In this document: in pieces, positions 11,112 to 50,703 of the stretch
Position numbering within the stretch: the stretch's first letter is position 1
Layout of the letters: every line of letters begins with the position of its first letter
Origin: Candidatus Avispirillum sp.
Lineage (GTDB): Bacteria; Bacillota; Clostridia; Oscillospirales; CAG-272
Direction: 5' to 3'
NCBI GenBank assembly: GCA_045636685.1
Contig: JAZTXZ010000065.1
Coordinates: 1-56,138, forward strand
Length of the DNA: 56,138 bases
The notes under the pieces: generated by a model
Told to the model about the DNA's origin: nothing
Seen by the model: the letters and a program-made list of their open reading frames with translations, nothing else
The model's database searches: none
Position numbers and translations under genes: made by a program

Positions 11112-11148
11112 TGTATAGAGAAAAATTTGTTTTAAAAGGACGGTATTT

Positions 11149-13209: not shown

Positions 13210-13220
13210 TCTTCATTGCA

Positions 13221-13340: not shown

Positions 13341-13370
13341 ATCTCTATTATAAATTGAAAGGGTATTGAT

Positions 13371-14648: not shown

Positions 14649-15091
14649 TGAAAACATTTCAGGGTAGAGTAGTAACTCCCGGTGAGGTAAGTGCAAAGGC
14701 GCTTGTTTCCCACGGTGGTCTTAATACACTTGCATCCTTCCAGAATGCGCTTCAGTTTGGCGACAAGCAGGCAAAATGCGGCGACCAGAATAACCCCGAT
14801 CTTTATGGAAAGCCTATGGTAGGAACAGCTCTTTGCCTTCCCCAGACAATCGGAAGCACAACAGGCGGCCTTGTTCTTTACTGTGCAGCTGCAATGGGCC
14901 GTCAGCCCGCTTGCATGCTTTTCTCAAAGCCTATCGACTCTCTTGCGGCAGCAGGTGCGATTCTTGCTGACGTATGGGTAGATGGCGTAACAATGCCCGT
15001 TGTTGATTCCCTCGGCGACGAATTCCTCGAATACGTTAAGGATGGAATGAATATTACCGTAAAAGACGGCGGAATTATCGAAGTAGAATAA
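14648..15091 (+). CDS. aconitase X swivel-domain subunit (DUF126 family)
   Basis: 147 aa. Pattern GK..VG.ALCLPQTIGSTTGGLVLY....G.QPA is typical of DUF126. Translationally coupled to the DUF521 gene. Confidence 0.75.
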   Translation: MKTFQGRVVTPGEVSAKALVSHGGLNTLASFQNALQFGDKQAKCGDQNNPDLYGKPMVGTALCLPQTIGSTTGGLVLYCAAAMGRQPACMLFSKPIDSLAAAGAILADVWVDGVTMPVVDSLGDEFLEYVKDGMNITVKDGGIIEVE

Positions 15092-20264: not shown

Positions 20265-20362
20265 ATGTAAGTCTTAAAACACTGTTAAGATATTGTTTCA
20301 GAAAAAAGTTCTGATAGAAACTTTTTTTGTTTTATAAATTAAAAAACGGGAGATATCCGAAA

Positions 20363-30566: not shown

Positions 30567-30665
30567 ATACTTTTGAATCTGTCCGCAAAAACGGACATCA
30601 GAAAATACTTGCTTTAAAGAAAAAGTACACGAAAGAAAATTTATTTTTTCGGTACTGTAAAAGAA

Positions 30666-30702
30666 AAAGGAATCTCCGTCAGAGACGGAGATTCCTTTTT
30701 TT
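30666..30702 (+). terminator. intrinsic terminator
   Basis: Stem GGAATCTCCGT/ACGGAGATTCC followed by T7. Confidence 0.8.
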
Positions 30703-30807
30703 GATAACAGTAAAACACAGTCTGTTCAAGTGATGTATTATGTACAAGATTTGTGGGGAATTTTGGTATTTCATTGGCGAAATGTTTGGAAATAATGTCA
30801 TAATTTG

Positions 30808-30836
30808 TTGACTAATATTTGAAAATATGTTAATAT
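30808..30836 (+). promoter_or_regulatory. sigma-A type promoter candidate for the four-gene operon
   Basis: TTGACT-17 nt-TAATAT, about 35 nt upstream of the ATG at 30871. Confidence 0.5.
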
Positions 30837-30870
30837 ACACTATATATATTTATTTTTAGGAGTGTGTGCG

Positions 30871-33054
30871 ATGAAGCGGTCTTTAAAAGTACTTTGCGTT
30901 TTACTTGCCACAGTTATATGTGTTTTGCCTCTGATTCCTTTTGTGAACGGAGCTTCTGTATTTCAGCGTCAAAAAAAGAGTATATATCTTGTTCTTGACG
31001 ATTCTTTCAGTATGGTAAATCGCCCGACATACGATGCAAATTATTCATTGCAAACTCTTCTTGCGATGACAGATAAAAACGATTCTGTCAAGCTTTATTT
31101 CTTGAATGAAAAATTTGGCTTGTCCGGAAATATCGAGATGTCCAAAAAGGACAATGATATGCTCTCAAAGGTACATGATAAATATCCTGAGCCTACAGGC
31201 GGTACTCCTTATACGAGTGTTCAAATTGCTCAAAAGGAATTGACAGCTGCAGCATCCGAGGGAGATGAGACCGATTATTGGCTTGTCGTATTTACAGACG
31301 GAGAGTTTTCAATGCCTGCAGGATTGACAACTGAAAATGATCTTCAGACTTTCGCAGATAAAGAGCTTGCAAATGGAACTAAACCCAATGTTTTGTATAT
31401 TACTGTCGGTGGTACAAGTATTAGTAACGGTAATCGTGATAATCTCCACGTTATAGACCACACCAGTATTATCACTGCCATGACTGATGCGGCAAAGGTA
31501 ATATCCGGCCGAATCAATGTTGAAAATGTTAATTATTCCGCAGACGGTAAAGAGCTTACTTTCTCGTTGCCTTATCCTGCTAAGAATATCATCGTATTAA
31601 CTCAGAATACCCGTACAAAGATTACAGATTCAAAGGCAGCATCCGATCTCAATATATCGGAAAACTATACTATCACCTATCCGGAACCCGGCTATGGACT
31701 GGATAAATCTACTGTATGCTTCATAACAGAGAAGAATAACTCCAGCATCGGCTCCGGAGAAGTTACTCTCAAATTTGATAAAGGATTAAATCCTCAAAAT
31801 ACTACTGTACTATTTGAACCTGCCATAGGAATAGTAGCACATTACTATAACAGTGACGGTGCCGAGGTTGATCCCAAGGATCTGTACATCAGTGAGAATT
31901 GCAGAATTGAATTTACGATCTGTGACAGTGAGACCAAGAAGCCGCTTGATATCGGAGCTTTCGGAGGCAATGTAAAGTATTCTTCCGAAGTGGATGGAAT
32001 TAAGGCAGATTCAAATGTCCGTGAATTCACCATCAATAAAGACGAAATTGAAATAGTTCTTTATGCCGAGATGCCCGATGGCTATATTCTGGAAACAAGA
32101 CAAAAATATAATTTTGAAGTAAGCAGAATCATAACATTCACGCTTTCAAACGGAGGTAAGTTTAAAGCTGATATTACCGAGTTGAAAAATGCGGAGGGCA
32201 CACGCGCCGATATCCTTATAAACGGAGCGAGTATTTCATCCGCGGAGTTGAAGGATTTTGAACTCGATATTGAAGGAGAAAACAGTTTCGTTTCAAATTT
32301 CGATATTGAGAAGGATGAGAAAAATGGTGGTTTCATAATCCATCCCAAAAAGGGCTGGATATCGCCCCTTACACCTAAAGATAAAACTTATAAAGTAAAC
32401 CTTACCGATAAATCAACCGGTAAAATCTATACCGCTGACCTTACAGTAGAAATTACTGGCCCGAGAAATTGGATCCCGATTATTGTTTTTGTTCTCATAG
32501 TTGCTCTTATTGTATATCTCATAATAGTATTTGCAACAAAGACATATTTCCCGAAAAATTTGAGATTTGTGCTGTATTTGAATAAGCCTGATTCGGGAGC
32601 CAAAGGTAAGCATGGAATTAAATATACACTAGGAAAGATTTATTGGAATGAATTTACGAAGTGCTTTAAAGGTAATTTTACCTTTTTTGTACATCTGTTC
32701 AAACAGCTGCTCCCCAATACAAGGCAATGTGTAACTTTGTACGGTATAGGCAGCAGGGGGTATTATGACCAAATTACGATCATAGCTAATCTTTCAACTG
32801 TTGTATATGCCGAAGATAAAACTTTGAAGTATAATGAAACCAGTAAAAAATTCAGTTCGGAATATGATGTGTATAACAGCAATTTCATTAAGATCATGGG
32901 CGCTGAAAATCTGACAAAAAAACCGAAATCAAAGGAAAAGCCTCGTTATACAATAGATACAGGAAATGTACTGGTCAGAAAGAAAGTTTCATCTACAAAT
33001 AGTAAAGTATATCTTCACATTACCAGAAAAACAAAAAAGAAATTAAATAAATAA
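30871..33054 (+). CDS. membrane protein with extracytoplasmic von Willebrand factor A (vWA) domain
   Basis: ATG 30871 follows a TAGGAG RBS. Signal/anchor MKRSLKVLCVLLATVICVLPLIPFVNG. MIDAS elements LVLDDSFSM (DxSxS), GGTPYT and VVFTDGEF. Beta-rich middle region, TM WIPIIVFVLIVALIVYLIIVFA, and a basic ~170-aa tail. Confidence 0.75.
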   Translation: MKRSLKVLCVLLATVICVLPLIPFVNGASVFQRQKKSIYLVLDDSFSMVNRPTYDANYSLQTLLAMTDKNDSVKLYFLNEKFGLSGNIEMSKKDNDMLSKVHDKYPEPTGGTPYTSVQIAQKELTAAASEGDETDYWLVVFTDGEFSMPAGLTTENDLQTFADKELANGTKPNVLYITVGGTSISNGNRDNLHVIDHTSIITAMTDAAKVISGRINVENVNYSADGKELTFSLPYPAKNIIVLTQNTRTKITDSKAASDLNISENYTITYPEPGYGLDKSTVCFITEKNNSSIGSGEVTLKFDKGLNPQNTTVLFEPAIGIVAHYYNSDGAEVDPKDLYISENCRIEFTICDSETKKPLDIGAFGGNVKYSSEVDGIKADSNVREFTINKDEIEIVLYAEMPDGYILETRQKYNFEVSRIITFTLSNGGKFKADITELKNAEGTRADILINGASISSAELKDFELDIEGENSFVSNFDIEKDEKNGGFIIHPKKGWISPLTPKDKTYKVNLTDKSTGKIYTADLTVEITGPRNWIPIIVFVLIVALIVYLIIVFATKTYFPKNLRFVLYLNKPDSGAKGKHGIKYTLGKIYWNEFTKCFKGNFTFFVHLFKQLLPNTRQCVTLYGIGSRGYYDQITIIANLSTVVYAEDKTLKYNETSKKFSSEYDVYNSNFIKIMGAENLTKKPKSKEKPRYTIDTGNVLVRKKVSSTNSKVYLHITRKTKKKLNK

Positions 33055-33081
33055 GTTTGTGATTAAAAGGAGTAAAAAAAA

Positions 33082-36000
33082 ATGAGTGCACCTCAAATTG
33101 TTGAAATCAGTAATACCCGTCCAAGACAGGTTCTTCTTGTAGGATTGGGAGGCGTTGGCAGCAGAACAGTAGATACGATTCTGTCCGTAATGCCTGATGA
33201 ATATAAGCCCTACACAACTGCTGTTGCAATTGATACCGATGTTGGCGACCTTGATAAGAGACTGACATATATCCCCAGAGAAAACAGAATATCCTTGGGC
33301 ACAAATCCCAAGAACGGTCAGTCCATAACAGTTGGTAATTATATAAGAAATCATCCGGAAACGGAAGAGTGGTTCCTTAAGGGAGAGCGCGTTGACCTGG
33401 TAAAAAAGAGAAATACCAAGGAGGGCGCAAAGCAGGTAAGAATGGTTTCCCGTATCGCTCTTGCTGCCACCGATGAATACTGCGGTATGACAAAGAAGCT
33501 TGAGGATGTGCTTCAAGGACTGAATAAGGCAGACGGAACTACGATCAGCAGCGGACTCCTTGTTCTGGTAGTTGCCTCCGTTGCAGGAGGTACCGGTGCA
33601 GGTACTGTGCTTCAGTTCCCCCTTTATCTTGAGCAGGCGCTTTCAAGATCATTCCAGGATGACAGCATTCAGATAGAATGTGCTATGCTTCTTCCCAATA
33701 TGTTCAGCCATGTTCATACTTCTCAGAATGCTGCGTCTGCCCGTGCAAATGCATATGCTGTTGTACGTGAACTTATTTCCATGAACAGCAGAAGACTTAA
33801 GAGAGGAGATATTCTTCCCGGCTGTGACTTTGGTAAAAAATCAGAGAATATTTCTCCTTATTCCAGAGTGTATTTCTTTGATGATTGCAGCATTTCCGGC
33901 GATACCATAATGACTGACCTTGATCGCGTATATGTTCCCAAAACAGCCAATGCCCTTAATGAATATCTCTTCGGTGCGGCAAAAGGTAAAATTACAAGCG
34001 ATCTTGATAATACTTTGCAGGCAGTATATGAATCTGAAGGTGCAGCTATATTCTCCGCTTTGGGTTCTGCAGTGCTTGATTATCCCAGGGCTACATATAC
34101 TCAGTATGTGATTGGCAAGTGGATAACAAAGGTTATAGCAAGGGATTGGAGATATGTTGACGAAAAAGTAAATAATCGCTATGCCGAGATCATAAAGAAT
34201 GCTATTGAAAACGGAACAGGAAAGCCTAATAAAGAAAAAACAAAAAGAGCTCTCTACCTTGATATAGTAGGCCGCGAGGATACTCCTTTCTTTAAGGAGA
34301 TCAAAAGATCTTATTTTGTATCTGAAGGTGCGGATGATGAATATGATGAGGATGCTGAAAAGTTAAGCCTTGCACAGTTGTTCTGGAATCGTTGTGAAAA
34401 TCATCTCAGAGACGAGGTGAACAGAAATACAAGATTTACAACTGCAAAGATTGAGCTTGAAAATAATCTCGTTGAAAACGATGTAGGCACATTTATTGAC
34501 AATTTGAAAGAAATTGAGCAGTCAGGCGCTGCACTTCAGTCTGTGGGCTCGCAGTATGAGATGGATGTAGTACGTCCTATGGAAGCTCAGAATGATGTTT
34601 TCTATACATCCCGTAATCGTGTTGAGAAGCATCTTTTCACCTTCCTCAAAAAACATAAGCTTCATCCCATAATGCTCAGATATTTCCTTTGCGAACTTCA
34701 AAAGCTTGCTATGGAAAATTCCGTATTCAATACAGAAGAGTTAAACACTCAGGATTTCAAGGAGCTTAAAACTAAAAGAGATCGCAGAGAACATGCAATA
34801 AATCAATCTGCCAAATTAGATGAAAAAACTGTAAGAAACGTCATTGCAAATTTCGCACAGTATCTTGTTGCTGACCTTGATGAGTATATCAAGGAGTTAG
34901 AGGATATGTTCATGTGCCTTGATTCTGTAATCGGTACATTTGAGACAACTTCCAGAAAGTCTCTTGAGAATCTTACCTTTAGTAATCCTCAGACAGGCGC
35001 TGTGCTTTCAGGCGGTTCTCTTTCCATGAGATATGTATGGAAGCGTATCGAAGATGAGATGAGTAACGGTGCTGATGTGTTCACTGTTGATGAAGAACTG
35101 AACAACAAGCTTCATGAACTAATATATAAAGCATTTTATGGCAGAGTGGGCGACATTCAGTCGTCAAATGGCAACAGTGATGAAGGATTCAGAGTAAGAA
35201 CCAAATATGAGACTATTCTTGCAAGAGAACTTCAGATATATTACTCAAGAATGCTCAATGACAGATATTCCAATATATTCCCCAGTGATGTATTTGATGC
35301 GGCAAGAGTTGAATGCGGTCTCAGAAATGCATATAAGGAGCAGCGCAGTCGTGTTGATGATCCCGGTAAATTCACTGAGCAGGTGTTCATTGATAGGGGC
35401 GGAAGACCTTTGAATTTCGCAACTGAAATTGAGGCACCTGCAGGAATGCAGGATGATGCAAGATATTTGACAGCATTGCTTAATGCAACTATAGCAAATT
35501 CTAAACCCTACAGCGGACGTCTTAAGGATTATATCGATGTAAGCACAGATCAGTACGGAAATACAGACGGTATAAGAACAGACGTTATTGTTAATTCAAG
35601 ATTGCTTCGTACAGAGGCTGATCCTCATAACCTTGATGAATTCGGCGTTGCCAAAGAACGCAGAATCGAGGAGGAGTTTATAGACGGCGTAAGTGCAACC
35701 AGCGTTATGGGTACCGATATACAGACTACTTATGTGGACAGCGGTATCTCTCTTAATCAGATCAAGATTGTAACTTCAATCAGATCATTACAGCCCTTCA
35801 ACTTCGTTGCATTCCTTCCTTCTGACGATGATAAGCATTCTCCCACCAATGGTAAGACTTATTTTGAGTCATACAGAGAGGCAGTTAACGATATTCCGGT
35901 AAAGAATAATGTGATAACACCTCATCTCCATCGCAATTGGCATCTTGCTGATATGCTGGATGATATTACCGATGCACATACCAATACATATAACAGAAGT

Positions 36001-36771
36001 GCAGCTGAAGCTTTTGTGCTTGGATTTATTTTTGATATTATCAGAGTCGGAAGTGACTGTGTTGTTGAAATAGGAAAGCTCCATAATCCTTATTTCTCAA
36101 GAATTTTCGGAGATATGGGTATTAAGCAGTTTGTTCTCCTTGATAAAGTTGCACATGCTTCCGTTGATAACAGCATAAAGCTTGAAGGATGTGAGGTAGG
36201 TGCAAAGCGAGATACAGTAAATGCAGTTCTTGTGGAGATTTATAGTCTTCTTGCATCAACTGATAATCTTAGGGATGCGATCTTCGGTTATGCAACCGAG
36301 CAGTTTAAAGAATATTCTATTAAAAAAGATGTTCAGTTTATCAGAAACTGTATCGAAGATGAGAATATTTCCAACGTTATGTACAACTGTATTCTTGACG
36401 TAATTGACGGCTATTATCAGGGAACCCGTCAGCTTCCTTACAAAGAAGCGTTCCGTGGCGAAACCAATACAGATTATATGGTTAAGGCAGTATTTAAAAA
36501 TCTCTATGAGATGTGCAACCTGTTCAGCAACGAAATTTCTGCTGTTAAGACTATTTACGAAAAGTTTGTAGATAAGCTTTATGATGATTGCTTCTGTGAG
36601 GGGGTAGCAGAGAATATGATCGTTGAATCGCTCGATGAATATGATGAATTAGCAGCAATAGCTAATTCGGTTAACAAGAATAGCGGAACACAGAGTAAGC
36701 CTTTTTCTCCCAACGGTACTTTCAGTCGCAAGAATGCAAAAGATATTTTTAATCAGCTTATAAACGAATAA
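33082..36771 (+). CDS. giant tubulin/FtsZ-superfamily GTPase-like protein (1229 aa)
   Basis: AAGGAG RBS. N-terminus LLVGLGGVGSRTV, AIDTD, EGAKQVRMVSRIAL and VASVAGGTGAGTV, which matches the tubulin/FtsZ signature GGGTG[ST]G. About 900 aa of extension with no TM. Confidence 0.7.
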   Translation: MSAPQIVEISNTRPRQVLLVGLGGVGSRTVDTILSVMPDEYKPYTTAVAIDTDVGDLDKRLTYIPRENRISLGTNPKNGQSITVGNYIRNHPETEEWFLKGERVDLVKKRNTKEGAKQVRMVSRIALAATDEYCGMTKKLEDVLQGLNKADGTTISSGLLVLVVASVAGGTGAGTVLQFPLYLEQALSRSFQDDSIQIECAMLLPNMFSHVHTSQNAASARANAYAVVRELISMNSRRLKRGDILPGCDFGKKSENISPYSRVYFFDDCSISGDTIMTDLDRVYVPKTANALNEYLFGAAKGKITSDLDNTLQAVYESEGAAIFSALGSAVLDYPRATYTQYVIGKWITKVIARDWRYVDEKVNNRYAEIIKNAIENGTGKPNKEKTKRALYLDIVGREDTPFFKEIKRSYFVSEGADDEYDEDAEKLSLAQLFWNRCENHLRDEVNRNTRFTTAKIELENNLVENDVGTFIDNLKEIEQSGAALQSVGSQYEMDVVRPMEAQNDVFYTSRNRVEKHLFTFLKKHKLHPIMLRYFLCELQKLAMENSVFNTEELNTQDFKELKTKRDRREHAINQSAKLDEKTVRNVIANFAQYLVADLDEYIKELEDMFMCLDSVIGTFETTSRKSLENLTFSNPQTGAVLSGGSLSMRYVWKRIEDEMSNGADVFTVDEELNNKLHELIYKAFYGRVGDIQSSNGNSDEGFRVRTKYETILARELQIYYSRMLNDRYSNIFPSDVFDAARVECGLRNAYKEQRSRVDDPGKFTEQVFIDRGGRPLNFATEIEAPAGMQDDARYLTALLNATIANSKPYSGRLKDYIDVSTDQYGNTDGIRTDVIVNSRLLRTEADPHNLDEFGVAKERRIEEEFIDGVSATSVMGTDIQTTYVDSGISLNQIKIVTSIRSLQPFNFVAFLPSDDDKHSPTNGKTYFESYREAVNDIPVKNNVITPHLHRNWHLADMLDDITDAHTNTYNRSAAEAFVLGFIFDIIRVGSDCVVEIGKLHNPYFSRIFGDMGIKQFVLLDKVAHASVDNSIKLEGCEVGAKRDTVNAVLVEIYSLLASTDNLRDAIFGYATEQFKEYSIKKDVQFIRNCIEDENISNVMYNCILDVIDGYYQGTRQLPYKEAFRGETNTDYMVKAVFKNLYEMCNLFSNEISAVKTIYEKFVDKLYDDCFCEGVAENMIVESLDEYDELAAIANSVNKNSGTQSKPFSPNGTFSRKNAKDIFNQLINE

Positions 36772-36789
36772 ATTTAAGGATACCAACTT

Positions 36790-38514
36790 ATGGAAGAACT
36801 CAAAACAGTTGTTATTGTAGACCGCAGAATCTACGAGAAAATCCAACTGTATAGAAGTTTTCTTGAGAGAAGTGAGTTCGAAACTCAATTGTCCGAAACC
36901 CGATTCATATGTGAAGATACAGCTGAGGACTTGTCCTCAGCTGTATCAAATAATATTACGAATTATTTATTTCTGTACGGGTTGATAGACGGTGATGAGT
37001 ATAGGATTCATCGTGATTTGATTATCGATAAGATGAAGAACTATCCCAACTCAAACTTCTATATGATTTTCTGCCAGAATCTGCTTAACGATGAGCCCTA
37101 TGACAATATTGAAAAAGTTAAAGGCTTAGTCTGCAAACCTTTTTGTATAGGAATAGTTGAGGGGGGCGATTTGTCCGATGAAGAAGCTGCTGAAAATCTT
37201 CGTTGTGTGAAGCTTTTGTCTCTTGCTATGGCGATATGTTCGTATAATGATGGCCCCGGAGGGTGCTATGCTCCCGAATACTATTATGTAACAGCTACAA
37301 TAGATGTTAATTGTACGAATGTGTTTTACGCTGCATCCTATGAATTAAGTAAGTTTGCTGAGTCAATTAATAATAAAGTTCAGCAAATCAATGGGCTTGA
37401 AGCCAGCGCTGATAGCATTGCAAAGGAAAAGCCCCACATGTGTACGGGAAACTATGCAGATGCCTCTCAGGCGCTTGAGTCATTGTCGCTACGTGGCTTT
37501 TCCGAATATTCGGATATGAGTGCTATGCGTCGCGAGATGGAGTTCTTGGGTAAGAAATGCGTTACTGTATATGATGATAACATTGCTTCGAAAATAAACA
37601 CAGCACGTTGCGGGCTTGCATTTGCTGAAGAAAAAATCAAACCGACATACGATGTAAATAATAACGGCAATATTTCTGTAGATGTTGATTATAATCTTGC
37701 CAATAGCTATATGTCTATAACGGAAGCCGATGAGGATCAGGTTGCTTCTCCGGATGAACTGCTTGCTCGTCCCGATAATAATATGGGATTTAATGTTGCG
37801 ATGCTGCGTTCAGCTTTGCCTCTTGCAAAGGAATTAGAGAAGTCTCAGTCAACTCAGCCGAAAAAAATATTGCCAATTACCTTGGGTATACTCCTGCTTT
37901 TTGCAGTGTCAGCTGCATCGGCATATATAGTAAGATATTTTATGTCAGGACTGACAGGAGTTGATATGACTGATATCTTGCTTACAATTTGTATTCCTGT
38001 TGCTGTTATACTTTTGATTACTGTAATTGCTTTTTGTATAAGCATATTTCAGAAGAGACAGAAAAAGCAAATATTTAAAGGGCTCTATTCAAAGATTTCA
38101 GCCTTTATAGAAAATACCAAAGATGTTTGTTTGAAAATAAATCAATATATAGATAAATATCTTACCGTTTATTTTAATTATCACATCAAGTATAATCTGA
38201 TCCGAGAGTGTAACGAAAAGGCAGAATATTTGAAAAAGGATATTCTTGCTATTCGCAAAAAGAGCATTCCTTATGAGGATCTTGTAACTACAATGTGCCT
38301 TTTAAATAAAGCGGACATTCCTTATCCTCAAAATAAGGTAGATGAAAACGGAAGTATTGTAAGAACTGTATCTGAAGAGATCATACACAAAATCAAAGAA
38401 AGCTCATCTGATGATAATACCGGTGCAGATGAGCCTCAGAGGCTCTTATCTCCATGGATGACATCCGTGGTAATTGAAACCGGTAGCTTTATTCCAAAAG
38501 AAGAGGAGAGCTGA
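36790..38514 (+). CDS. two-TM membrane protein, function unknown (574 aa)
   Basis: Soluble N-domain of about 355 aa, then a TM hairpin (ILPITLGILLLFAVSAASAYIV and ILLTICIPVAVILLITVIAFCISIF), then a helical acidic C-terminus. The stop is 1 nt from the next ATG. Confidence 0.6.
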   Translation: MEELKTVVIVDRRIYEKIQLYRSFLERSEFETQLSETRFICEDTAEDLSSAVSNNITNYLFLYGLIDGDEYRIHRDLIIDKMKNYPNSNFYMIFCQNLLNDEPYDNIEKVKGLVCKPFCIGIVEGGDLSDEEAAENLRCVKLLSLAMAICSYNDGPGGCYAPEYYYVTATIDVNCTNVFYAASYELSKFAESINNKVQQINGLEASADSIAKEKPHMCTGNYADASQALESLSLRGFSEYSDMSAMRREMEFLGKKCVTVYDDNIASKINTARCGLAFAEEKIKPTYDVNNNGNISVDVDYNLANSYMSITEADEDQVASPDELLARPDNNMGFNVAMLRSALPLAKELEKSQSTQPKKILPITLGILLLFAVSAASAYIVRYFMSGLTGVDMTDILLTICIPVAVILLITVIAFCISIFQKRQKKQIFKGLYSKISAFIENTKDVCLKINQYIDKYLTVYFNYHIKYNLIRECNEKAEYLKKDILAIRKKSIPYEDLVTTMCLLNKADIPYPQNKVDENGSIVRTVSEEIIHKIKESSSDDNTGADEPQRLLSPWMTSVVIETGSFIPKEEES

Positions 38515-38515
38515 T

Positions 38516-41500
38516 ATGAAACCTATTATATTGTTAATATTGGTATGTATAATTGAATTTCTGTTAGCTCCGAAAAAAGAGTATAGATACCGAAATATCG
38601 ATTCTTTGATTGCAGCATTTTTTGTATGGATGGTTGAGATTATTTCTGATATTTTGATATCAATAATCTATCCTGATCTTCAAAATGTTGAGTTATTCTT
38701 CTATCTTGTAATTGCAATACAGGCAATAATCATTATAGGAACTAAACTGATCTCCAAAAGCAATGATTCCTTGGTTAAATACGGAATTCCTCCTAAATAC
38801 ACTGAAGGATTTCGATCTTCTTTTATAGGTGGATTCTACGATTTTGATAAAAGTACTCCCATAGTTTATTCCAAAGGTTTTGTCAATCCTTTGGGAATAT
38901 CGGTTTTGTGCAGTACTGTCATTCTTGCATGTGTCTTCGTATGGCAATCCTATACTTATGATTTGTCAGGAAATACATTGCTTCTTCCTTATTCTTATGC
39001 AGGATTGCTTTCCATTTTGGTTGAGTTTGCGGTATTTTGTCTCGGTGAATCAAAATGGGAGAATCTTCTTAAAAGATACAGAAGCCGTAAGAATTGCACC
39101 AATAAAAGAGAATATGCTAAATCAAGATATTCAGCAGTTGAAAAGTATGGCTATATATTTCTGAAAAACTTTATATATGAGCCTATGAGTATCAACAGGG
39201 CTACTAAGTTCAACTGGAAATCGGATGCATTTAAAAGTTCAATAGTATACTATAATTTTAGTGATCATTCAGAAAGTGAATATACAAGCCAGGAGCATAA
39301 TGCTGCACTTGAATCATTCATTTCGCTTAATAATCTCAGGGTTAACGAGTACTATGTTGCTGCTTACAATCTTATAGACCGAGATCAGAATGTTTTGATC
39401 AAGACACCTTCATATGTTGAGTTTGAGCCTTATCTTGTTTCAATGATAAAGCTCAAAGTTGCAAAAACACAAAAGGTTGTAATGATAGTGAGCAATGATG
39501 AGAAAAAGCAGGCCATTGTTCAGAAGATCAAAGGGGCATTTAACGAGTATTTTGGTTTTGACAGTATTCCTCTTATCACTGAGATCGGTGAATATGCGGA
39601 TATAGAAGAGAGGAAAGCAAAACAAAAAAAGGCTCCTGAGCCACGCAGTGCTCGATCACATCTTGATGCAATTATTCAGAGTAATATCATCAAAGAAGAA
39701 GAGCCGGTCATACCCATAAAGTCTCCGGATGTTGTTATAGCAACATCAGAGGATGTATGTGATCCTGAATATATAGAGCATATAAAAACAATCGTTAAGA
39801 ATCTTGGCTTGATAGTATATTACGATTTTGGCGATTCTGTCCAGGAAGAAACACTTTTTGCCAAAATAGTTCATGCTGTTCTTGATTATGACGATAAAGT
39901 GCCTACACTCTATATGTCTGACGGATTTTTCGATCTGGAGCAGGTCGTAGATAACTTTTTTTCAAAGAGAAATCTGTATAGGATCGTTGTTCCGAGAAAA
40001 CCTTCGAAAGAAAGCTATATAACCGGTTGGAAATCGGAAACTTTAGCTGAGATTCAATCCAGGACAGAACCGGATGCATCAAGAAATATCGGCAATCATA
40101 TCCCTGTTCTGTACGATTGTACAGGTCATACACAAAATGACATGATGATCGTAGAGGACGAATATGACACTTATGCTGAGAATATGTCCAATTTTTCCGG
40201 TTCTAATATTGCACATCGCTTTGACCATCATGTTGGATGGACAGATGTTATTGGTGGAAACAGTGTGATTTGTTCTGTTTCGGACACATATAACAATGCA
40301 GCTCATACATACTTAGCTATGCAGGGTGTAGGCGAAGCAAGTGAATATATCAATATAATTTCAAGACCATATCTGCTCAGAAACTATTTGATGTATCATT
40401 TGAGATATTTTGCTTTAAACCCCGGAGTGTTGTCATCATATTCACCAGGAATGATCAAAACTTCTCGTGCAATATCTTATGAGGCCGTCATCAAGGCTTT
40501 CATAACCGGATGTACTGAAGAACAGATAGAATTGTACATCCAGCAGACATCTCTCCCTGCCATCGGAACACCTGAGGAAAGACTTGAGTCACTTGTTAAG
40601 TGTGCTTTAGGCGGGAAGGCTTCTGTAGCTCCAATAATTACAAAGGATAGTAAAGAACGTTATTATATCGATAAGGATACCTATTCCTGCATTATAGAAA
40701 AGAGCGGGTTGATAGAAAAAATCGAGTTTGTTAATAATAATCAAACTTTTCTTCGTAACAGACGGGATTACAGCTATTTGATACCTCATCAGAAAATTGT
40801 TATCAACGGTATTAAATATACAGTAGAGGCTATCAAAGGAAATCGTGTTGAGATCACTGACTCAAATATTCGAGAGCCTATGTACATTACAAGACCTGTG
40901 CGTACTTGTAATATAAGAGTACAAGAGGAAGAGAACTATGGAAACATAATACAGAACAGCAGTGATACCTCTATTAGCTTCAAAAGATTTGTATGTGATG
41001 TTTCTCTGGACGTATATGGCACTATCATATTTAAAAACAGCTATCATCCGTTCTTTGATGATGAAAGATTTGATTATCAAAAATCATCCGTAAAACAACA
41101 CAGAGAATACGATGATGTTAATGTTTTCTGTATAAAGATAGGAAGCCCCTATATCAACAGCTCAAACCGAACCGAGATAGAGCATTTGTTTGCATTGCTT
41201 ATCAATGAAATGCTCCCAACATTTTTCCCGAAGCATTCTGAGAAAATAATTATCGGATGCAACGGTTGGGTGATAGATCCTGAAATCGGAAACATCATGC
41301 CCAAAACAAAGCATATGATTGCACAAATGAATATAGACGGCATGGAAATGCTGGCTGAAAATGAGATGTGCATCTATGTTCTTGAGGATTCTCCTCTTGA
41401 GACGGGTTTGGTCAACGTATTTTGGCAGGATGAAGAGTTCCGATATATGTTAAAGGTACTTGAAGATTACCTGTATTATCAGGAAACAATACGCAGACAG

Positions 41501-42610
41501 GAGCAGAAGGAATTATTCAGCAAAAATTATAAAGAACATCTGCATCTGCTGAGAAAGATACTTTTGAAGGCAGCAAATGAAACTGTTGAATTCCGCTCAT
41601 CAAGAGATGATTTTGATGTGATGAATTTTAACAGTATCAGAGCTTCGCGTAACAAGTACAATAATATTGATATCAGCAGGAACTTTAATCTTACCTGTGA
41701 TATATGTGGTAAACCCATAATCCGAACATCTTCTCAGAAGGTTGACTATCATTTTTACTCGTATTCTGGCATGGTCAGCTGTATGAACTGCTTCAGTCAG
41801 GCTGTATGCGCGGAAAAGTATTCCCAGGCTGATATAAATGTTCTTGAGGAAACGATCAACAGATGGTTTATGTCCAAATACAACGAGTCTGTCGAAGGAG
41901 GATTTTATAATTATCTGGAGGATGCAGAATTTCTCAATGATCTGGTGGTTGAGCATAACGGTGATCAGAACAGATATATCGTGACTGACGATGCCGATAT
42001 GGACGGTGTATACGGATTGAGCCTTAGTAAGCCTTCTGTTAAGAGCTCAGTCATTTCTTCTCCCAATGCTGAAGGCATTCCTGTAACTATGGGTGACAGT
42101 GGAGTTGAGGTCTATGATAGGGTCCGTTCAGGTTATTATGTTGACGATAACGGTATTCCATTTATTTTTATCCGTGACGGACTTCCGTATAAGAAATATA
42201 TGGGTGTGCTGTGTCACGAGATGACTCACCAGTGGCAGTACGCAAACCTGGATTTTGAGAAGCTTGCAATAGGCGTTCCCAGCGGAAGATCCGATGAATT
42301 CGGCAAGAACATTGATCTTACTTCTATGCGTATTGAAGGCCATGCAGAATGGGAACGAATGCGTTATCTTAGTGCACACGGAACTAATACAGCTCCTTTG
42401 AAAAGGAAGTTGGCAGCTACACAGAATAGTTACGGCATCGGATATGTATGGATGAAAAACATGATGAAGGTCGGACATGATGATTATAGGATTCCTGCTA
42501 ACAGAACTTTCAAATTCATAATGAAGAGGAATTTCTATCAGTTTACAAAGAATTCCTTTGCTTTGATGAAGCTTTACTTCGGAATTAAACCGCCTGACGA
42601 AGAGAATTAA
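38516..42610 (+). CDS. giant polytopic protein with Cys4 zinc ribbon and C-terminal HExxH zincin-like domain (1364 aa)
   Basis: ATG 38516 follows GAGGAGAG and lies 1 nt after the upstream stop. About 5-6 N-terminal TM helices. CDICGKP...CMNCFSQAVC. VLCHEMTHQWQY...EGHAEWE near the C-terminus. Confidence 0.65.
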   Translation: MKPIILLILVCIIEFLLAPKKEYRYRNIDSLIAAFFVWMVEIISDILISIIYPDLQNVELFFYLVIAIQAIIIIGTKLISKSNDSLVKYGIPPKYTEGFRSSFIGGFYDFDKSTPIVYSKGFVNPLGISVLCSTVILACVFVWQSYTYDLSGNTLLLPYSYAGLLSILVEFAVFCLGESKWENLLKRYRSRKNCTNKREYAKSRYSAVEKYGYIFLKNFIYEPMSINRATKFNWKSDAFKSSIVYYNFSDHSESEYTSQEHNAALESFISLNNLRVNEYYVAAYNLIDRDQNVLIKTPSYVEFEPYLVSMIKLKVAKTQKVVMIVSNDEKKQAIVQKIKGAFNEYFGFDSIPLITEIGEYADIEERKAKQKKAPEPRSARSHLDAIIQSNIIKEEEPVIPIKSPDVVIATSEDVCDPEYIEHIKTIVKNLGLIVYYDFGDSVQEETLFAKIVHAVLDYDDKVPTLYMSDGFFDLEQVVDNFFSKRNLYRIVVPRKPSKESYITGWKSETLAEIQSRTEPDASRNIGNHIPVLYDCTGHTQNDMMIVEDEYDTYAENMSNFSGSNIAHRFDHHVGWTDVIGGNSVICSVSDTYNNAAHTYLAMQGVGEASEYINIISRPYLLRNYLMYHLRYFALNPGVLSSYSPGMIKTSRAISYEAVIKAFITGCTEEQIELYIQQTSLPAIGTPEERLESLVKCALGGKASVAPIITKDSKERYYIDKDTYSCIIEKSGLIEKIEFVNNNQTFLRNRRDYSYLIPHQKIVINGIKYTVEAIKGNRVEITDSNIREPMYITRPVRTCNIRVQEEENYGNIIQNSSDTSISFKRFVCDVSLDVYGTIIFKNSYHPFFDDERFDYQKSSVKQHREYDDVNVFCIKIGSPYINSSNRTEIEHLFALLINEMLPTFFPKHSEKIIIGCNGWVIDPEIGNIMPKTKHMIAQMNIDGMEMLAENEMCIYVLEDSPLETGLVNVFWQDEEFRYMLKVLEDYLYYQETIRRQEQKELFSKNYKEHLHLLRKILLKAANETVEFRSSRDDFDVMNFNSIRASRNKYNNIDISRNFNLTCDICGKPIIRTSSQKVDYHFYSYSGMVSCMNCFSQAVCAEKYSQADINVLEETINRWFMSKYNESVEGGFYNYLEDAEFLNDLVVEHNGDQNRYIVTDDADMDGVYGLSLSKPSVKSSVISSPNAEGIPVTMGDSGVEVYDRVRSGYYVDDNGIPFIFIRDGLPYKKYMGVLCHEMTHQWQYANLDFEKLAIGVPSGRSDEFGKNIDLTSMRIEGHAEWERMRYLSAHGTNTAPLKRKLAATQNSYGIGYVWMKNMMKVGHDDYRIPANRTFKFIMKRNFYQFTKNSFALMKLYFGIKPPDEEN

Positions 42611-42662
42611 GGCAAATCGGAAGAAGGCAACATATAAGCAAAATTAAAAATAAGGCGAATAA

Positions 42663-42700
42663 AAAACCTCTGGAGCCGTTTGGCTTCAGAGGTTTTTTTA
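42663..42700. terminator. bidirectional intrinsic terminator between convergent genes
   Basis: Stem CCTCTGGAGCC/GGCTTCAGAGG (one G-U pair), flanked by A6 and T7. Confidence 0.8.
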
Positions 42701-42719
42701 TTAATTACTTTGCTTTTAA

Positions 42720-48768: not shown

Positions 48769-50703
48769 ATGAAAAGTATCAGAAATATCGGTATTTTTGC
48801 CCATGTTGATGCTGGAAAAACAACGCTTTCAGAGCAGATACTGTCTTGTTCAGGCGCTATCCGTACAGTAGGAAGTGTGGACTCGGGAACGGCTCATACT
48901 GATAATTTGCCTGTAGAGCAGAGACGAGGGATCTCTGTCAAGGCTACCTGTGTTTCAATAAATTATGGTGATGTACGCATAAATCTCATTGATACCCCCG
49001 GGCATGTGGATTTCTCTGCAGAGGTGGAGCGCTCTATGTGGGCGCTTGACGGTGCTGTACTTGTTGTATGCGCAGTTGAGGGCGTACAACCTCAGACCGA
49101 GGTCCTGTTTGAAGCAATGTGCGAGCAGAAAATTCCCGTACTGTTTTTTATCAATAAAACAGATCGCGAAAACGCAGACATAGAGAAAGTAACAGCACAG
49201 ATAAAGCGAATGCTGAATAAAAATGCGGTGATTACCACAGATACAGAATCGCTCTGTGATATTGTTTGTGATAATTTTGACGATCTTTTGGAGAGATATT
49301 TAAGTGGTGAAGAACTTTCCGAAGATCATTTGCATGAAAAGCTTGCAGAACTGACTTCTTCCTGCCGTGCATATCCTGTGCTTTACGGCTCTGCTTTAAA
49401 GGGCGAAGGTGTTGAAAGGCTTCTTGATGCAATTGCTGACTATCTTCCGGCGCCGAAAGTTGCTGAAGAGCTTTGCGGAGTAGTATTCGCAGTAAGGCAG
49501 GATAAAAACCTTGGCCGCGGCGCATGGGTCAGACTCTACGGTGGAAGCCTTGAAAACCGCGAGGCGATCAACCTCGATGCGGGTGCTGATCCGATTTCAG
49601 GTGAGGCGAAAAAGACGCAGTATAAAATAACCCAGATTCACGATACGGCTCTGAACCCTATAGGTAAAATCGGTGCAGGGGAGATTGGCGTAGTATACGG
49701 CCTTTCCGACGTAAAGATAGGTCAGATCATAGGAAAAGCCGATTGTATGGAAAGAAAAATAGAGGCAGGAAAGCTAAGAACCCCTCTTATCACAGTAAGA
49801 GTTATTCCAAGCGACAGCGAAAAAATGCAGGACCTTCGCAGAGCTTGTGAGATCCTTTCAAGTGAAGATCCGCTGCTGGAGGTTCAGTATATCCGTACAG
49901 TCAATGAACTGCATCTGAGAGTGATGGGAACGATACAGCTCGAAATAATCGAAGAACTGCTAAGAACCCGATTTGGTCTTTCCGTTTCCTTCGGTACTCC
50001 AGCTATTATATATAAAGAAACCATATCCCGGTCCGCAGTGGGATTTGTGGCGTATACTATGCCAAAGCCCTGCTGGGCTGTTTTGAAATTCATAATCGAG
50101 CCTGCGGAGAGGGGAAGCGGAGTAACGTTTTCATCAGAAGTTCCCCTAAGCAAGATCATGGCTTGCTACCAGCATCAGGTGGAGCAGGCAATCCCGATCG
50201 CTCTGAATCAGGGACGCCTGGGATGGCAGGTAACGGATATAAATATCAAGCTCATAGATGGTGAGCATCATCTTGTCCATACCCATCCTCTGGATTTTAT
50301 CGTAGCAACACCAATGGGAATCCAGGATGGGCTTCAACGCGGAGGAAGCACTCTCCTTGAGCCTGTACTTTTCGTGAAATTTATCGTTCCCTCCGATTTT
50401 GTCGGCAGAGTGATGAGCGATGTTATCAATATGCGCGGTGGGGTGGTTGATACTGTATATGACGGTGACAGGGTGATTCTGAGTGCTCTTGTTCCCGTCC
50501 AGTCAAGCCTTGATTATTCCATAACCCTTGCAACTTTTACAAGCGGCAGAGGCACAATGAGCGCCCGTCTTCATAGCTACAGGGAATGCCCGATGGAACT
50601 TGGTGCAACCTCGCAGAGAAGAAGCATAGATCCCCTCGATACAAGTAAATACATCCTCGCCGCCCGCGGCGCCATGGATGGAAATATCTTTAATTTGGAT
50701 TGA
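48769..50703 (+). CDS. EF-G-like translational GTPase of the tetracycline ribosomal-protection type (TetB(P)/TetM-like)
   Basis: 644 aa. G1 AHVDAGKTT. The GSVDSGTAHTD segment resembles GSVDKGTTRTD of ribosomal protection proteins (RPPs). DTPGHVDFSAEVERS..LDGAVLVV..EGVQPQT and INKTDR. The length matches RPPs (about 640 aa) rather than EF-G (about 690 aa). Confidence 0.7.
   Translation: MKSIRNIGIFAHVDAGKTTLSEQILSCSGAIRTVGSVDSGTAHTDNLPVEQRRGISVKATCVSINYGDVRINLIDTPGHVDFSAEVERSMWALDGAVLVVCAVEGVQPQTEVLFEAMCEQKIPVLFFINKTDRENADIEKVTAQIKRMLNKNAVITTDTESLCDIVCDNFDDLLERYLSGEELSEDHLHEKLAELTSSCRAYPVLYGSALKGEGVERLLDAIADYLPAPKVAEELCGVVFAVRQDKNLGRGAWVRLYGGSLENREAINLDAGADPISGEAKKTQYKITQIHDTALNPIGKIGAGEIGVVYGLSDVKIGQIIGKADCMERKIEAGKLRTPLITVRVIPSDSEKMQDLRRACEILSSEDPLLEVQYIRTVNELHLRVMGTIQLEIIEELLRTRFGLSVSFGTPAIIYKETISRSAVGFVAYTMPKPCWAVLKFIIEPAERGSGVTFSSEVPLSKIMACYQHQVEQAIPIALNQGRLGWQVTDINIKLIDGEHHLVHTHPLDFIVATPMGIQDGLQRGGSTLLEPVLFVKFIVPSDFVGRVMSDVINMRGGVVDTVYDGDRVILSALVPVQSSLDYSITLATFTSGRGTMSARLHSYRECPMELGATSQRRSIDPLDTSKYILAARGAMDGNIFNLD

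Follow-up and report, generated by a model that had tools for sequence, protein, structure and literature searches.

The locus raises the question of what a vWA protein, a tubulin/FtsZ-like GTPase, a TM-hairpin protein, and a giant membrane zincin do together, and whether they form one system at all. The window is the whole stretch of DNA that was analyzed (56,138 nucleotides). It contains the four genes, here g1 to g4, on the + strand, with products of 727, 1,229, 574, and 1,364 aa. The unit and its boundaries are as follows.

30666..30702, + strand, upstream intrinsic terminator (perfect 12-bp G+C-rich stem, with an A-tract and a T-tract either side)
30808..30836, + strand, sigma-70-like promoter candidate TTGACT-17-(TG)TAATAT (9/12 matches plus the TG extension)
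30858..30862, + strand, AGGAG ribosome-binding site, 8 nt 5' of the g1 ATG, read from the sequence
30871..33054, + strand, g1, exported vWA/MIDAS protein (ORF from ATG)
33082..36771, + strand, g2, FtsZl1 (Pfam Tubulin_2) protein
36790..38514, + strand, g3, TM-hairpin protein in the "B5" position (ORF)
38516..42610, + strand, g4, giant membrane protein, "B12" (ORF from ATG)
42661..42698, + strand, intrinsic terminator closing the unit (17 pairs, T-tail)

An ORF recount returned the lengths and gaps reported in the initial annotation (27, 18, and 1 nt for g1/g2, g2/g3, and g3/g4, from ORF coordinates). The upstream terminator belongs to an FAD/Rieske oxidoreductase gene and is the 5' edge of the unit. 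The initial annotation had called both flanking terminators strong, and folding agrees. The upstream fold (30660-30708) reached -27.7 kcal/mol (z -7.5), and the downstream fold (42655-42708) reached -26.3 kcal/mol (z -6.6); 0 shuffles equaled either. No terminator-like site was found on the + strand within the four-gene block. The promoter was found where it had been placed, with a TG in addition, but the match itself is at chance level (42 promoter-like sites across the region against 44.1 expected). Because such sites are no commoner than chance, it is the position in a 168-nt intergenic gap that speaks for this candidate. The tiny gaps, the strong terminators at both ends with none between, and the conserved gene order argue that the four genes are one functional unit. 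The block is very probably the single transcription unit that had been proposed, and it belongs to the vWA - FtsZl1 - "B5" - "B12" subtype of the vWA-FtsZl1 operon class.

This architecture is not new as a kind. It was catalogued computationally by Makarova & Koonin 2010, whose Additional file 5 lists vWA - FtsZl1 - B5 - B12 for Ruminococcus lactaris and "Bacteroides" capillosus. B12 is described there as a zincin protease that is membrane-associated and carries a fused Zn finger. The FtsZ-like families with membrane partners that the initial annotation mentioned as computational predictions are exactly the FtsZl1 of that study. The locus had been presented as a candidate uncharacterized system. 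We found no experimental work on a vWA-FtsZl1 operon in the literature, but the novelty was overstated, since the architecture had already been tabulated.

It had been suggested that co-occurrence of the four genes be checked in other genomes. The same order is present in about 12 distinct loci, with g2 identities of 31-75% and flanks that differ each time. The wider vWA–FtsZl1–hairpin–giant cassette is present in 39 loci from Clostridia and Bacteroidales. There were 113 representatives in all among 1.84 billion proteins, 4 of them at E<=1e-30. The cassette is patchily spread across Oscillospiraceae, Acutalibacteraceae, Ruminococcus, Christensenellaceae, and Bacteroidales, and gut and rumen MAGs are the source of its homologues. 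At no other locus, including those at 70-75% identity, does the cassette lie beside a gene that flanks it in the window. The GC content of the operon is 0.34-0.40 versus about 0.39-0.49 in the flanks. Searches of 72,556 plasmids and of IMG/VR returned no relatives, and a phage-collection search gave a single weak match. The cassette is in all probability a rare accessory that moves as a unit, carried here by an uncultured gut or rumen bacterium of the Oscillospirales (Clostridia). A dockerin protein encoded by the host hints at a surface-attached, fiber-degrading lifestyle.

The window's flanks contain ordinary metabolism and transport genes and no integrase. Neighbors at some other loci include RT-Cas1/Cas2/Cas6 with LHH/SUKH, TIR_2, NADAR-DarT1 with a T4SS coupling protein, or FtsK. 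Of the 137 proteins flanking the 39 loci, only about a tenth matched defense models, a proportion that stands without a matched background. PADLOC models matched 0/4 of the g1 to g4 proteins.

The first gene encodes the putative extracellular component. An alternative GTG start at 30862 would give 730 aa; the ATG at 30871 is preferred because AGGAG sits 8 nt upstream of it. The protein contains a signal peptide (aa 1 to ~28), a vWA domain (~aa 38-215), a beta-rich stalk (~aa 216-530), one TM helix (aa 533-555), and a cytoplasmic tail (aa 556-727) that is basic, as originally described (33 K/R versus 11 D/E).

30997..31011, + strand, MIDAS DxSxS (D43, S45, S47), intact and conserved in the homologue alignment
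within 31198-31212, + strand, MIDAS T112 (motif read, homologue alignment)
within 31288-31308, + strand, MIDAS D143 (motif read, homologue alignment)
32467..32535, + strand, single TM helix (Kyte-Doolittle peak 3.54)

The vWA assignment with an intact MIDAS holds through the homologues. DDSxSM, GGTP, and TDGxF are conserved in an alignment of 8 g1 homologues, which matched VWA_2 (4/8, best 9e-7), VWA (3/8), and vWA-TerF-like (2/8) in Pfam. The window's own g1 scores below E=1.

The second gene encodes an FtsZl1 protein. Its tubulin/FtsZ-like GTPase domain spans aa 18-352 and is followed by ~850 aa that are mostly helical (long-helix/coiled-coil), with mixed alpha/beta domains.

33142-33165, + strand, T1 loop GLGGVGSR (motif read)
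33577..33606, + strand, T4/G-box signature SVAGGTGAGT (AGGTGAG = aa 168-174)

The superfamily signature noted at the outset is borne out by a Tubulin_2 match (PF13809, E 1.2e-35), and G169, G170, T171, G172, and G174 are invariant across 30 homologues. The AlphaFold2 model, a confident one (pLDDT 81, pTM 0.64), has CetZ1 (4b46, 1.4e-6), FtsZ, TubZ, and tubulins as its top Foldseek matches. Sequence and model agree that g2 is an FtsZl1 protein with a tubulin/FtsZ fold. The three exclusions made earlier stand: it is not a TubZRC/PhuZ system, not an FtsZ in dcw context, and not BtubA/B. The T6-H7 elements of FtsZl1 were not identifiable for Makarova & Koonin 2010, and in our AlphaFold2 model the domain that follows H7 is poorer in strands than that of FtsZ; head-to-tail polymerization is therefore not assured.

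The third gene encodes a cytoplasmic N-domain of ~360 aa, the two TM helices expected of a hairpin protein, and a helical cytoplasmic C-domain of ~150 aa.

37867..38049, + strand, TM hairpin (aa 360-381 and 396-420, hydrophobic helices)

Both sides of the hairpin are bordered by basic residues. No family match to g3 was found in Pfam, NCBIfam, PADLOC, or PDB. A protein with the same topology sits at the equivalent position in 39/39 wider-family loci.

The fourth gene encodes five N-terminal TM helices (aa 1 to ~175), an SF2-helicase-like scaffold, a beta-rich domain, a Cys4 ribbon, and a C-terminal zincin. An alternative TTG start at 38474 would give 1,378 aa. A strongly basic segment follows TM5.

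39233..40465, + strand, helicase-like region (~aa 240-650; AlphaFold2 and Foldseek, fold level only)
39401-39433, + strand, motif I position KTPSYVEFEPY (no GK[ST])
39728-39754, + strand, Ib-like position DVVIATSED (motif read)
39809-39835, + strand, motif II position LIVYYDFGD (motif read)
41696..41791, + strand, Cys4 zinc ribbon CDIC...CMNC (aa 1061-1092; motif and homologues)
42215..42355, + strand, zincin motif HEMTHQWQ (aa 1234-1241) and candidate third ligand in EGHAEWE (aa 1274-1280) (motif read)

The TM bundle, the CxxC...CxxC ribbon, and HEMTH (aa 1234-1238) are thus all present as first read. The 4 ribbon cysteines are all invariant, both in close homologues and in distant ones. HExxHxWQ lies ~117 aa beyond the ribbon in ~100/111 family representatives, and Pfam matches to the zincin are weak but consistent (DUF6782, 15/17; BSP, 11/17; DA1-like, 6/17). 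The best Foldseek match of the model of aa 181-1364 is MrfA (6znp_A, E 2.8e-17), followed by Mtr4, Hel308, Ski2, and DEAD domains. Walker A is absent from the motif I position in every family member, and no Pfam helicase or DUF1998 match was found. From the model, the middle of g4 is predicted to form a helicase-like scaffold of the SF2 type that resembles MrfA/YprA but is ATPase-dead, a prediction that is new here. This call is limited by a moderate model (pLDDT 63, with aa ~495-645 below 50) and by the lack of sequence-level support.

All four proteins are predicted to be at or on the cytoplasmic membrane. The g1 signal peptide, TM helix, and basic tail, together with the basic residues at the g3 hairpin and after g4 TM5, place the vWA domain outside the cell and the GTPase, ribbon, and zincin inside.

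Sister clades without HExxH carry a transglutaminase-like domain, fused (Transglut_core in P0037 and P0038) or encoded just downstream. Two loci contain both. This exchange of end modules is new here. Conservation of HExxHxWQ and its exchange for a transglutaminase-like domain point to the g4 C-terminal enzyme as the output of the system.

We tentatively read the operon as a surveillance or conflict device that works from the outside in and ends in proteolysis in the cytoplasm. The domain identities, predicted topology, operon conservation, and exchange of the enzymatic end module come from the analysis; the trigger, every coupling step, and the targets are inferred. A ligand or surface perturbation would engage the MIDAS site of g1 and cluster or re-orient the g1 tails. 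The tails and the g3/g4 membrane platform may then nucleate GTP-dependent self-assembly of FtsZl1, which would serve as threshold switch and scaffold. Assembly would license the g4 zincin to cleave cytoplasmic protein targets or the system's own components, and the transglutaminase-like domain may act as effector in its place in the sister clades. Such coupling of extracellular binding to a GTP-dependent scaffold and a protease is plausible, and it fits the predicted topology. The rarity, patchiness, varied flanks, and GC shift of the cassette, and its defense-type neighbors at some loci, suggest accessory or conflict-like behavior, as does the reading of related tubulin and extracellular-vWA genes as NTP-dependent conflict systems (Kaur et al. 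2020). The surveillance reading is weakened by the PADLOC result, the housekeeping flanks, and the lack of plasmid or IMG/VR relatives. The doubt over head-to-tail polymerization of FtsZl1, the moderate model behind the helicase-like call, and the small share of defense matches among flanking proteins weaken it too. An extracellular sensor is also unusual among known anti-phage systems, which counts against it.

Those same housekeeping neighbors and missing PADLOC matches suit a non-conflict role, in which FtsZl1 would assemble on the membrane through its TM partners and deform or organize it, with the vWA protein and peptidase as assembly or regulatory factors. Membrane remodeling or vesicle biogenesis is the role proposed for the class (Makarova & Koonin 2010). 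All of the proteins except g2 are membrane proteins, and g2 joins a tubulin/FtsZ fold to long helices. Conservation within lineages would be expected of a core cell-biological function, however, and the cassette is very rare, patchy, and variable in position. The operon contains nothing that looks like a known membrane-bending module, and the conserved cytoplasmic peptidase and its exchange are left unexplained. We consider this role rather unlikely.

The resemblance of g4 to MrfA/YprA raises anti-phage abortive infection, since helicases of this family have a central role in DISARM, Dpd, and Druantia (bioRxiv 10.1101/2025.09.15.676423). The helicase-derived module would bind incoming or replicating phage nucleic acid at the membrane, FtsZl1 and the peptidase would respond, and the vWA domain would be only structural. 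CRISPR, TIR, or DarT neighbors at some loci are consistent with this. It is nonetheless improbable, given the missing Walker A and helicase/DUF1998 signals, the low pLDDT of the putative second RecA-like region, and the absence of PADLOC matches; the same YprA survey makes no mention of a tubulin, vWA, or transmembrane branch.

Integrin subunits contain a MIDAS vWA domain, a beta-sandwich-like stalk, one TM helix, and a cytoplasmic tail, and g1 parallels this layout in its vWA/MIDAS, stalk, single TM, and tail. It might accordingly bind a substrate, host glycoprotein, or neighboring cell, with its tail anchored on an FtsZl1 cytoskeleton and g4 processing or releasing it. A dockerin-encoding host and homologues from gut and rumen MAGs would suit adhesion. 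Neither adhesin repeats nor a cell-wall anchor turned up, however, the cassette is too rare for a general strategy of these lineages, and the g4 peptidase, predicted to be cytoplasmic, cannot shed the g1 ectodomain from outside. These points make adhesion more doubtful still.

That four unrelated genes are adjacent by chance, or decaying, is scarcely credible, being already contradicted by conservation of their order in about 12 loci (39 in the wider form), intact long ORFs, invariant motifs, tight spacing, and shared terminators.

The operon consists of four consecutive plus-strand ORFs with gaps of 27, 18, and 1 nt. The initial annotation had described this layout, and the ORF listing agrees with it. 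The genes are numbered g1 to g4 in order.

30862/30871-33054, plus strand: g1, vWA protein, 727 aa counted from ATG, with AGGAG 8 nt 5' of the ATG
33082-36771, plus strand: g2, FtsZl1 GTPase, 1229 aa (ORF listing)
36790-38514, plus strand: g3, TM-hairpin protein, 574 aa (ORF listing)
38474/38516-42610, plus strand: g4, giant membrane protein with a predicted zincin, 1364 aa counted from ATG (ORF listing)

Two strong terminators were said to bracket the block, and the folding energies of both stretches bear this out. The stretch at 30660-30708 had a folding energy of -27.7 kcal/mol (z -7.5), and that at 42655-42708 had -26.3 kcal/mol (z -6.6). The terminator scan overlooks the first because its stem extends through the A and T tracts. 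It found no plus-strand terminator-like sites within the block. The reported promoter, TTGACT-17-TAATAT, was found at 30808-30836 with a TG extension, but the match itself does not discriminate. The region contains 42 promoter-like sites, no more than its shuffles do (44.1), so it is the position of this site that speaks for a promoter. Every sequence motif quoted in the initial annotation was found in its place. The GC content of the operon was 0.34 to 0.40, somewhat lower than in the flanks (~0.39 to 0.49). The GC minimum of the window (0.342) lies at 38001-40000, which covers the g4 TM bundle and the start of its helicase-like part. The flanks are housekeeping genes, and the immediate neighbors are an oxidoreductase and a symporter.

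g2 encodes a divergent tubulin/FtsZ-family GTPase. It matched PF13809 (Tubulin_2) over aa 18-352 with an E value of 1.2e-35 and 123.9 bits (cut-off 27). For aa 1-1200, AlphaFold2 with an alignment of 30 homologues gave a confident model (pLDDT 81, pTM 0.64). Its best Foldseek match in the PDB was CetZ1, and many FtsZ structures, TubZ, and tubulins were also matched. These two results support the tubulin/FtsZ nucleotide-binding signature read earlier from the sequence. The T1 loop GLGGVGSR and the T4 loop AGGTGAG are invariant in the g2 family (30 homologues). The GTPase domain is followed by ~850 residues containing long helices (e.g., aa 565-611), mixed domains, and helical C-terminal domains. 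The protein fits the FtsZl1 layout, with a long helical or coiled-coil region, an alpha-rich C-terminal domain, and a length of at least ~1000 aa. It also fits the FtsZl1 context, with the vWA gene g1 immediately upstream. The model shows a reduced domain after helix H7, and polymerization of FtsZl1 is therefore putative.

In common with FtsZ, TubZ/PhuZ, CetZ, and BtubA/B, g2 has the fold of the GTPase domain and the nucleotide-binding loops T1 and T4. Identity to these proteins was ~12 to 15% in structural alignments. Unlike them, g2 carries an 850-aa extension, and a Pfam scan found neither FtsZ_C nor Tubulin_C. Its partners are membrane proteins, and it has no dcw context, TubR-like gene, centromere-like repeats, or paired A/B genes. 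The scans, the flanks, and the repeat search thus uphold the earlier exclusion of dcw-type FtsZ, TubZRC/PhuZ, and BtubA/B. A cell division FtsZ was rejected on a PF00091 score of 19.5 bits against a cut-off of 33, the absence of FtsZ_C, and flanks without division genes. TubZRC/PhuZ was rejected on the lack of a small ORF between the terminators and of plasmid or IMG/VR relatives; the only tandem repeat found was a trivial 2-copy one. BtubA/B was rejected on the lack of paired A/B genes.

g1 encodes a predicted extracellular vWA protein. The window protein itself had no vWA match in Pfam at E<=1. Its homologues (34-49% identity) matched VWA_2 in four of eight cases (best 9.1e-7), VWA in three of eight (1.6e-4), and vWA-TerF-like in two of eight (3.9e-6). 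PF00092 is recorded for the homologue in L091 (loci from other genomes are numbered with an L). All of the residues of the MIDAS metal site (D43, S45, S47, T112, and D143) are present, and the motifs are conserved in the seven homologues that cover the region. The protein begins with a signal peptide, is predicted to cross the membrane once through a strong TM helix at aa 533-555, and ends in a basic tail (33 K/R versus 11 D/E). The signal peptide, TM helix, and basic tail together place the vWA domain outside the cell. The homologue matches and the residues support the description of g1 as a vWA protein with an intact MIDAS, and the TM helix and basic tail are where that description put them.

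g3 encodes a TM hairpin with basic residues flanking both cytoplasmic sides. The hairpin is what the initial annotation had proposed. No family match was found in Pfam, PADLOC, NCBIfam, or PDB searches. The homologue search yielded two proteins only. An hhalign comparison of the g3 family with distant hairpin proteins gave 63% probability over the TM region only. At L007 13782-15431 the g3 gene is split into ORFs of 270 and 278 aa, with the TM hairpin in the second.

g4 encodes a protein with a bundle of five TM helices at its N terminus, an invariant Cys4 ribbon, and the motif HEMTHQWQ...EGHAEWE. The TM bundle, Cys4, and HEMTH named earlier were thus all recovered as sequence features. The model of the cytoplasmic part was of moderate confidence (pLDDT 63). 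Its top Foldseek match in the PDB was MrfA (6znp_A; E 2.8e-17, 855 columns). Lower matches were Mtr4, Hel308, Ski2, and isolated DEAD domains (TM-score 0.53-0.59 on the target). The strand-helix order at KTPSYVEFEPY, DVVIATSED, and LIVYYDFGD fits SF2 motifs I, Ib, and II, with KTPSYVEFEPY at the motif I position and YYDFGD at the motif II position. A Walker A (GK[ST]) was found at the motif I position in 0 of 40 locus homologues and 0 of 111 representatives. There was no match to the DEAD, Helicase_C, or DUF1998 (PF09369) profiles or to PDB sequences. Because GK[ST] and helicase profile matches are absent, the middle of g4 is predicted, from fold-level similarity, to be an ATPase-dead helicase-like scaffold. 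The putative second RecA-like region was modeled at pLDDT <50. PDB sequences gave no meaningful match either to profiles built from the g1, g3, and g4 alignments or to g2 as a single sequence, so the vWA and helicase-like calls have no sequence-level support from solved structures.

The C terminus of g4 is a predicted zincin. HExxHxWQ follows the ribbon by ~117 residues in ~100 of 111 representatives. Weak Pfam matches to DUF6782, BSP, and DA1-like recur at the C terminus (best 2e-4, all below gathering scores). The zincin reading is drawn from these recurring matches and the conserved motif. The region was modeled at pLDDT ~75-90. The top 50 Foldseek matches of g4 were all helicases and included no peptidases. 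A Pfam scan of distant and short g4 representatives gave weak zincin matches, one marginal NTPase_1 match, and nothing else. The DUF6782/BSP/DA1-like (Peptidase_MA-type) families share with g4 a zinc-binding module followed by HExxH, W/Q, and a downstream Glu. Unlike the zinc-ribbon/LIM plus zincin peptidases, the predicted peptidase module of g4 is the end of a 1364-aa membrane protein.

The architecture of the operon has been published. Makarova and Koonin (2010, Biol Direct 5:33, PMC2875224) defined FtsZl1 and noted that it shares operons with vWA proteins, OmpA-like proteins, kinases, a GTPase, and membrane proteins particular to single lineages. Two loci of the exact vWA-FtsZl1-B5-B12 architecture, both in Clostridia hosts, appear in their Additional file 5; B5 and B12 are their labels for the positions of g3 and g4. 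One is Ruminococcus lactaris RUMLAC_01529-01526, with proteins of 732, 1136, 678, and 1418 aa (Additional files 5 and 6). The other, "Bacteroides" capillosus BACCAP_04124-04121, has the corresponding four proteins at 861, 1183, 658, and 1435 aa. These operons were computational predictions only. The window operon, compared by order, size, and description, has the same order at 727, 1229, 574, and 1364 aa. In both, the first protein is vWA (COG2304) and the second is FtsZl1. It has the subtype layout of vWA, FtsZl1, a partner of ~570-680 aa, and a membrane protein of ~1400 aa with a Zn finger and zincin. Since Additional file 5 lists two such loci, the window operon is of a catalogued, computationally predicted kind. 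The phrase "candidate uncharacterised system" was thus too strong as to novelty. It stands as to function, as a literature search found no experimental study of FtsZl1, Tubulin_2, or their vWA systems. A 2023 FtsZ/tubulin phylogeny used Tubulin_2 proteins as outgroup only. The operon cleanly exemplifies a long-unsolved system and does not represent a new one. New here are the predicted dead-helicase scaffold, an exchange of zincin for transglutaminase, the predicted cytoplasmic effector orientation, and figures for rarity and mobility. The B12 helicase-like scaffold and the enzyme exchange come from this analysis and are absent from the accessible text of the 2010 paper.

The four genes together are called the cassette here. 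g2 has few homologues, which formed only 30 clusters at 90% identity. The nearest genomes were uncultured Oscillospiraceae (75%) and Acutalibacteraceae (70%) MAGs. In each readable homologous locus, all four genes recur in this order; the initial annotation had set such co-occurrence as a test. An iterative search covered 88 loci. A g1-like gene adjoins a g2-like gene in 59 of these, and a g4-like protein accompanies the g2-like gene in 45. All three occur together in 44 loci, or 39 without duplicates, from Oscillospirales, Christensenellaceae, and three Bacteroidales. All loci of this wider family have a TM-hairpin protein at the g3 position. In other phyla, g2 occurs alone or only with a vWA gene. 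A single-sequence query of 1.84 billion proteins gave 113 representatives of the g4 family, only four of them at E<=1e-30. The window's subfamily contains only ~4 clusters at 50% identity.

Some loci contain additional genes. In many loci of the wider family, Christensenellaceae-type ones among them, the FtsZl1 gene is followed by a shorter paralogue of ~900-1240 aa (L005, L006, L025-L027, L029, L030, L034, L036, L039, L045, L048, L051, L056, and L059). Large uncharacterized ORFs (586 to >1700 aa) lie just 5' of the vWA gene in several loci (L008 4204-7479, L007 1017-5588, and the upstream ends of L033, L040, and L042). They may be extra components (compare "B13" in R. lactaris); nothing equivalent precedes the vWA gene in the window.

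The end module of the g4-like protein is exchanged among loci. The protein is longer (1660-1880 aa) in most wider-family loci. These longer proteins have a transglutaminase-like C-terminal domain, or such a gene directly 3', and have no HExxH. The domain is fused to the g4-like protein within L021-L059, and the gene directly follows in L005, L025, L030, L048, and L051. HExxH is present in the window subfamily, the Bacteroidales loci, and two loci that also have a transglutaminase-like domain. Transglut_core occurs as a fused domain in two close homologues (P0037 and P0038). Zincin and transglutaminase-like folds both belong to peptidases or protein-modifying enzymes. The exchange likely marks the C-terminal end of g4 as the output of the system. 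Scaffold and exchange together point to a cytoplasmic protein-modifying output. The PADLOC model "mad8" matched four flanking proteins, which may be these same transglutaminase-like proteins.

The cassette behaves as a rare accessory unit that moves whole, on no recognizable mobile element. Its rarity, unshared flanks, lower GC content, and lack of plasmid or IMG/VR relatives all lead to this reading. None of the genes flanking it in the window lies beside the cassette in any other locus. Searches of plasmid and phage collections found no relatives on plasmids or in IMG/VR, and a plasmid, phage, or prophage origin was rejected. The only phage-collection match to g2 was at MT836542.1 6973-9786 (25.8% identity, E 4e-8). 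The contig, 9.8 kb from human feces and labeled "Bacteriophage sp.", has no annotation and may be a misassigned bacterial fragment.

Conflict-type genes were found beside the cassette in individual loci. The flank scans had no matched background, and the neighbors are given as single cases and not as an enrichment.

L002 3191-7604, upstream of the cassette: RT-Cas1 fusion, Cas2, and Cas6
L002 19449-20455, downstream of the cassette: LHH toxin and SUKH immunity protein
L004 707-1705, beside the cassette: TIR_2 protein
L091 21336-22619, beside the cassette: TIR_2 protein
L090 19885-20526, beside the cassette: NADAR-DarT1 with T4SS coupling protein

By predicted topology, the vWA domain and its stalk are the only parts exposed on the outside; the cytoplasm would hold the GTPase, the two g3 domains, and the scaffold, ribbon, and zincin of g4. 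Outside-in signaling is the simplest model consistent with this topology. Engagement of the MIDAS site would change the state of the g1 tail. FtsZl1 would then assemble, in a GTP-dependent manner, on a platform of g1, g3, and g4. Assembly would switch on the cytoplasmic enzyme. The coupling of an extracellular binding event to a cytoplasmic GTPase and a protease effector, as first suggested, is plausible. A conflict or surveillance role for such signaling is possible, and we tentatively hold it likelier than its rivals. We lean toward it on the rarity, patchy spread, variable location, exchangeable effector, and occasional CRISPR, TIR, DarT, and toxin-immunity neighbors. Against it, the four operon proteins matched no PADLOC-DB 2.0 families at E<=1, and the flanks in the window are housekeeping genes. 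An NCBIfam scan of the four proteins also gave no match.

Published conflict systems share some of these parts. Kaur, Burroughs, Iyer, and Aravind (2020, eLife 9:e52696, PMC7159879) describe tubulin and vWA in conflict systems centered on the GAP1-N2 GTPase. They are read there as NTP-dependent, threshold-setting assemblies adjoining the membrane. Firmicute coiled-coil tubulins and a membrane protein with an extracellular vWA, the latter by prediction here, are common to the window operon and the GAP1-N2 "DO-GTPase" systems described there. Two tubulin paralogues are also common to both, in sister loci of the window cassette. The hallmarks of those systems, namely GAP1, an FNIII-repeat protein, and one or two TRAFAC GTPases with N-terminal zinc ribbons, are absent from the window operon. 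No GTPase, MMR_HSR1, or FNIII family and no P-loop GTPase signature was found in its four proteins. B5 and B12 belong to the window subtype and are not among the GAP1-N2 system parts described in the accessible text.

Membrane remodeling was proposed for FtsZl1 by Makarova and Koonin (PMC2875224). The two computational papers thus differ, one reading membrane remodeling and the other biological conflict. We consider remodeling unlikely. A DNA-sensing variant of abortive infection would draw on the helicase-like part. The Cys4 zinc site of g4, C-terminal to the helicase-like region, may correspond to that of the MrfA/YprA (DUF1998) SF2 helicases. It differs from the MrfA/YprA helicases of MrfAB, DISARM, Dpd, and Druantia in having no Walker A and in having YYDF at the DExH position. 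Also unlike MrfA/YprA, it is membrane anchored, and its fusion partner is a predicted peptidase instead of a nuclease. We regard DNA sensing as distinctly improbable. Anchoring for adhesion, with the vWA domain and stalk outside the cell and the other predicted domains inside, is less probable still.

The conflict reading of outside-in signaling has a stronger form. The cassette would be the first bacterial transmembrane signaling or immune machine based on the tubulin superfamily. An integrin-like MIDAS receptor would drive GTP-dependent FtsZl1 assembly on a membrane platform. This would activate a membrane-tethered, helicase-derived peptidase, for which sister clades would substitute a transglutaminase-like enzyme. 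The cell would be killed or arrested, or the invader dismantled. We think this full chain unlikely. If true, the mechanism would have no characterized precedent among defense or envelope-stress systems. If the conflict reading is true, a cytoskeletal GTPase would join the bacterial immune switches. FtsZl1 is the most divergent tubulin/FtsZ branch and has been a "known unknown" since 2010. Compact and cleanly bounded, the window operon represents this branch in four genes, with mutable sites in the MIDAS, G-box, Cys4 ribbon, and HExxH. The apparent dead-helicase scaffold in B12, which carries the enzyme, and the enzyme exchange sharpen the question and suggest concrete assays.

Other features of the window were as follows.

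1364-3280, minus strand: 637 aa, weak match to the BlaR1-family sensor/signal transducer (93 bits, cut-off 400)
11092-13131, minus strand, and 11149-13209, plus strand: long ORFs on both strands
13128-14696, minus strand, and 13371-14648, plus strand: long ORFs on both strands
20327-21787, plus strand: type I dockerin protein
21881-23647, minus strand: GH35 beta-galactosidase
48769-50703, plus strand: 644-aa EF-G-family GTPase

The both-strand ORFs are 425-686 aa and lie in the highest-GC segment of the window (0.485). The minus-strand products had no NCBIfam match, and the second also had no Pfam match. The best match of the EF-G-family GTPase was tet_protect, the tetracycline ribosomal-protection family; the score of 509 bits is well below the curated cut-off (775). 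The protein is a paralogue of the TetM/TetO type and not a named resistance gene. Its gene adjoins those of two ABC exporters and of transporters of the MFS and MatE families. The adjacent dockerin and GH35 genes suggest a cellulosome-type, fiber-degrading host, consistent with Oscillospirales/Ruminococcus-like relatives.
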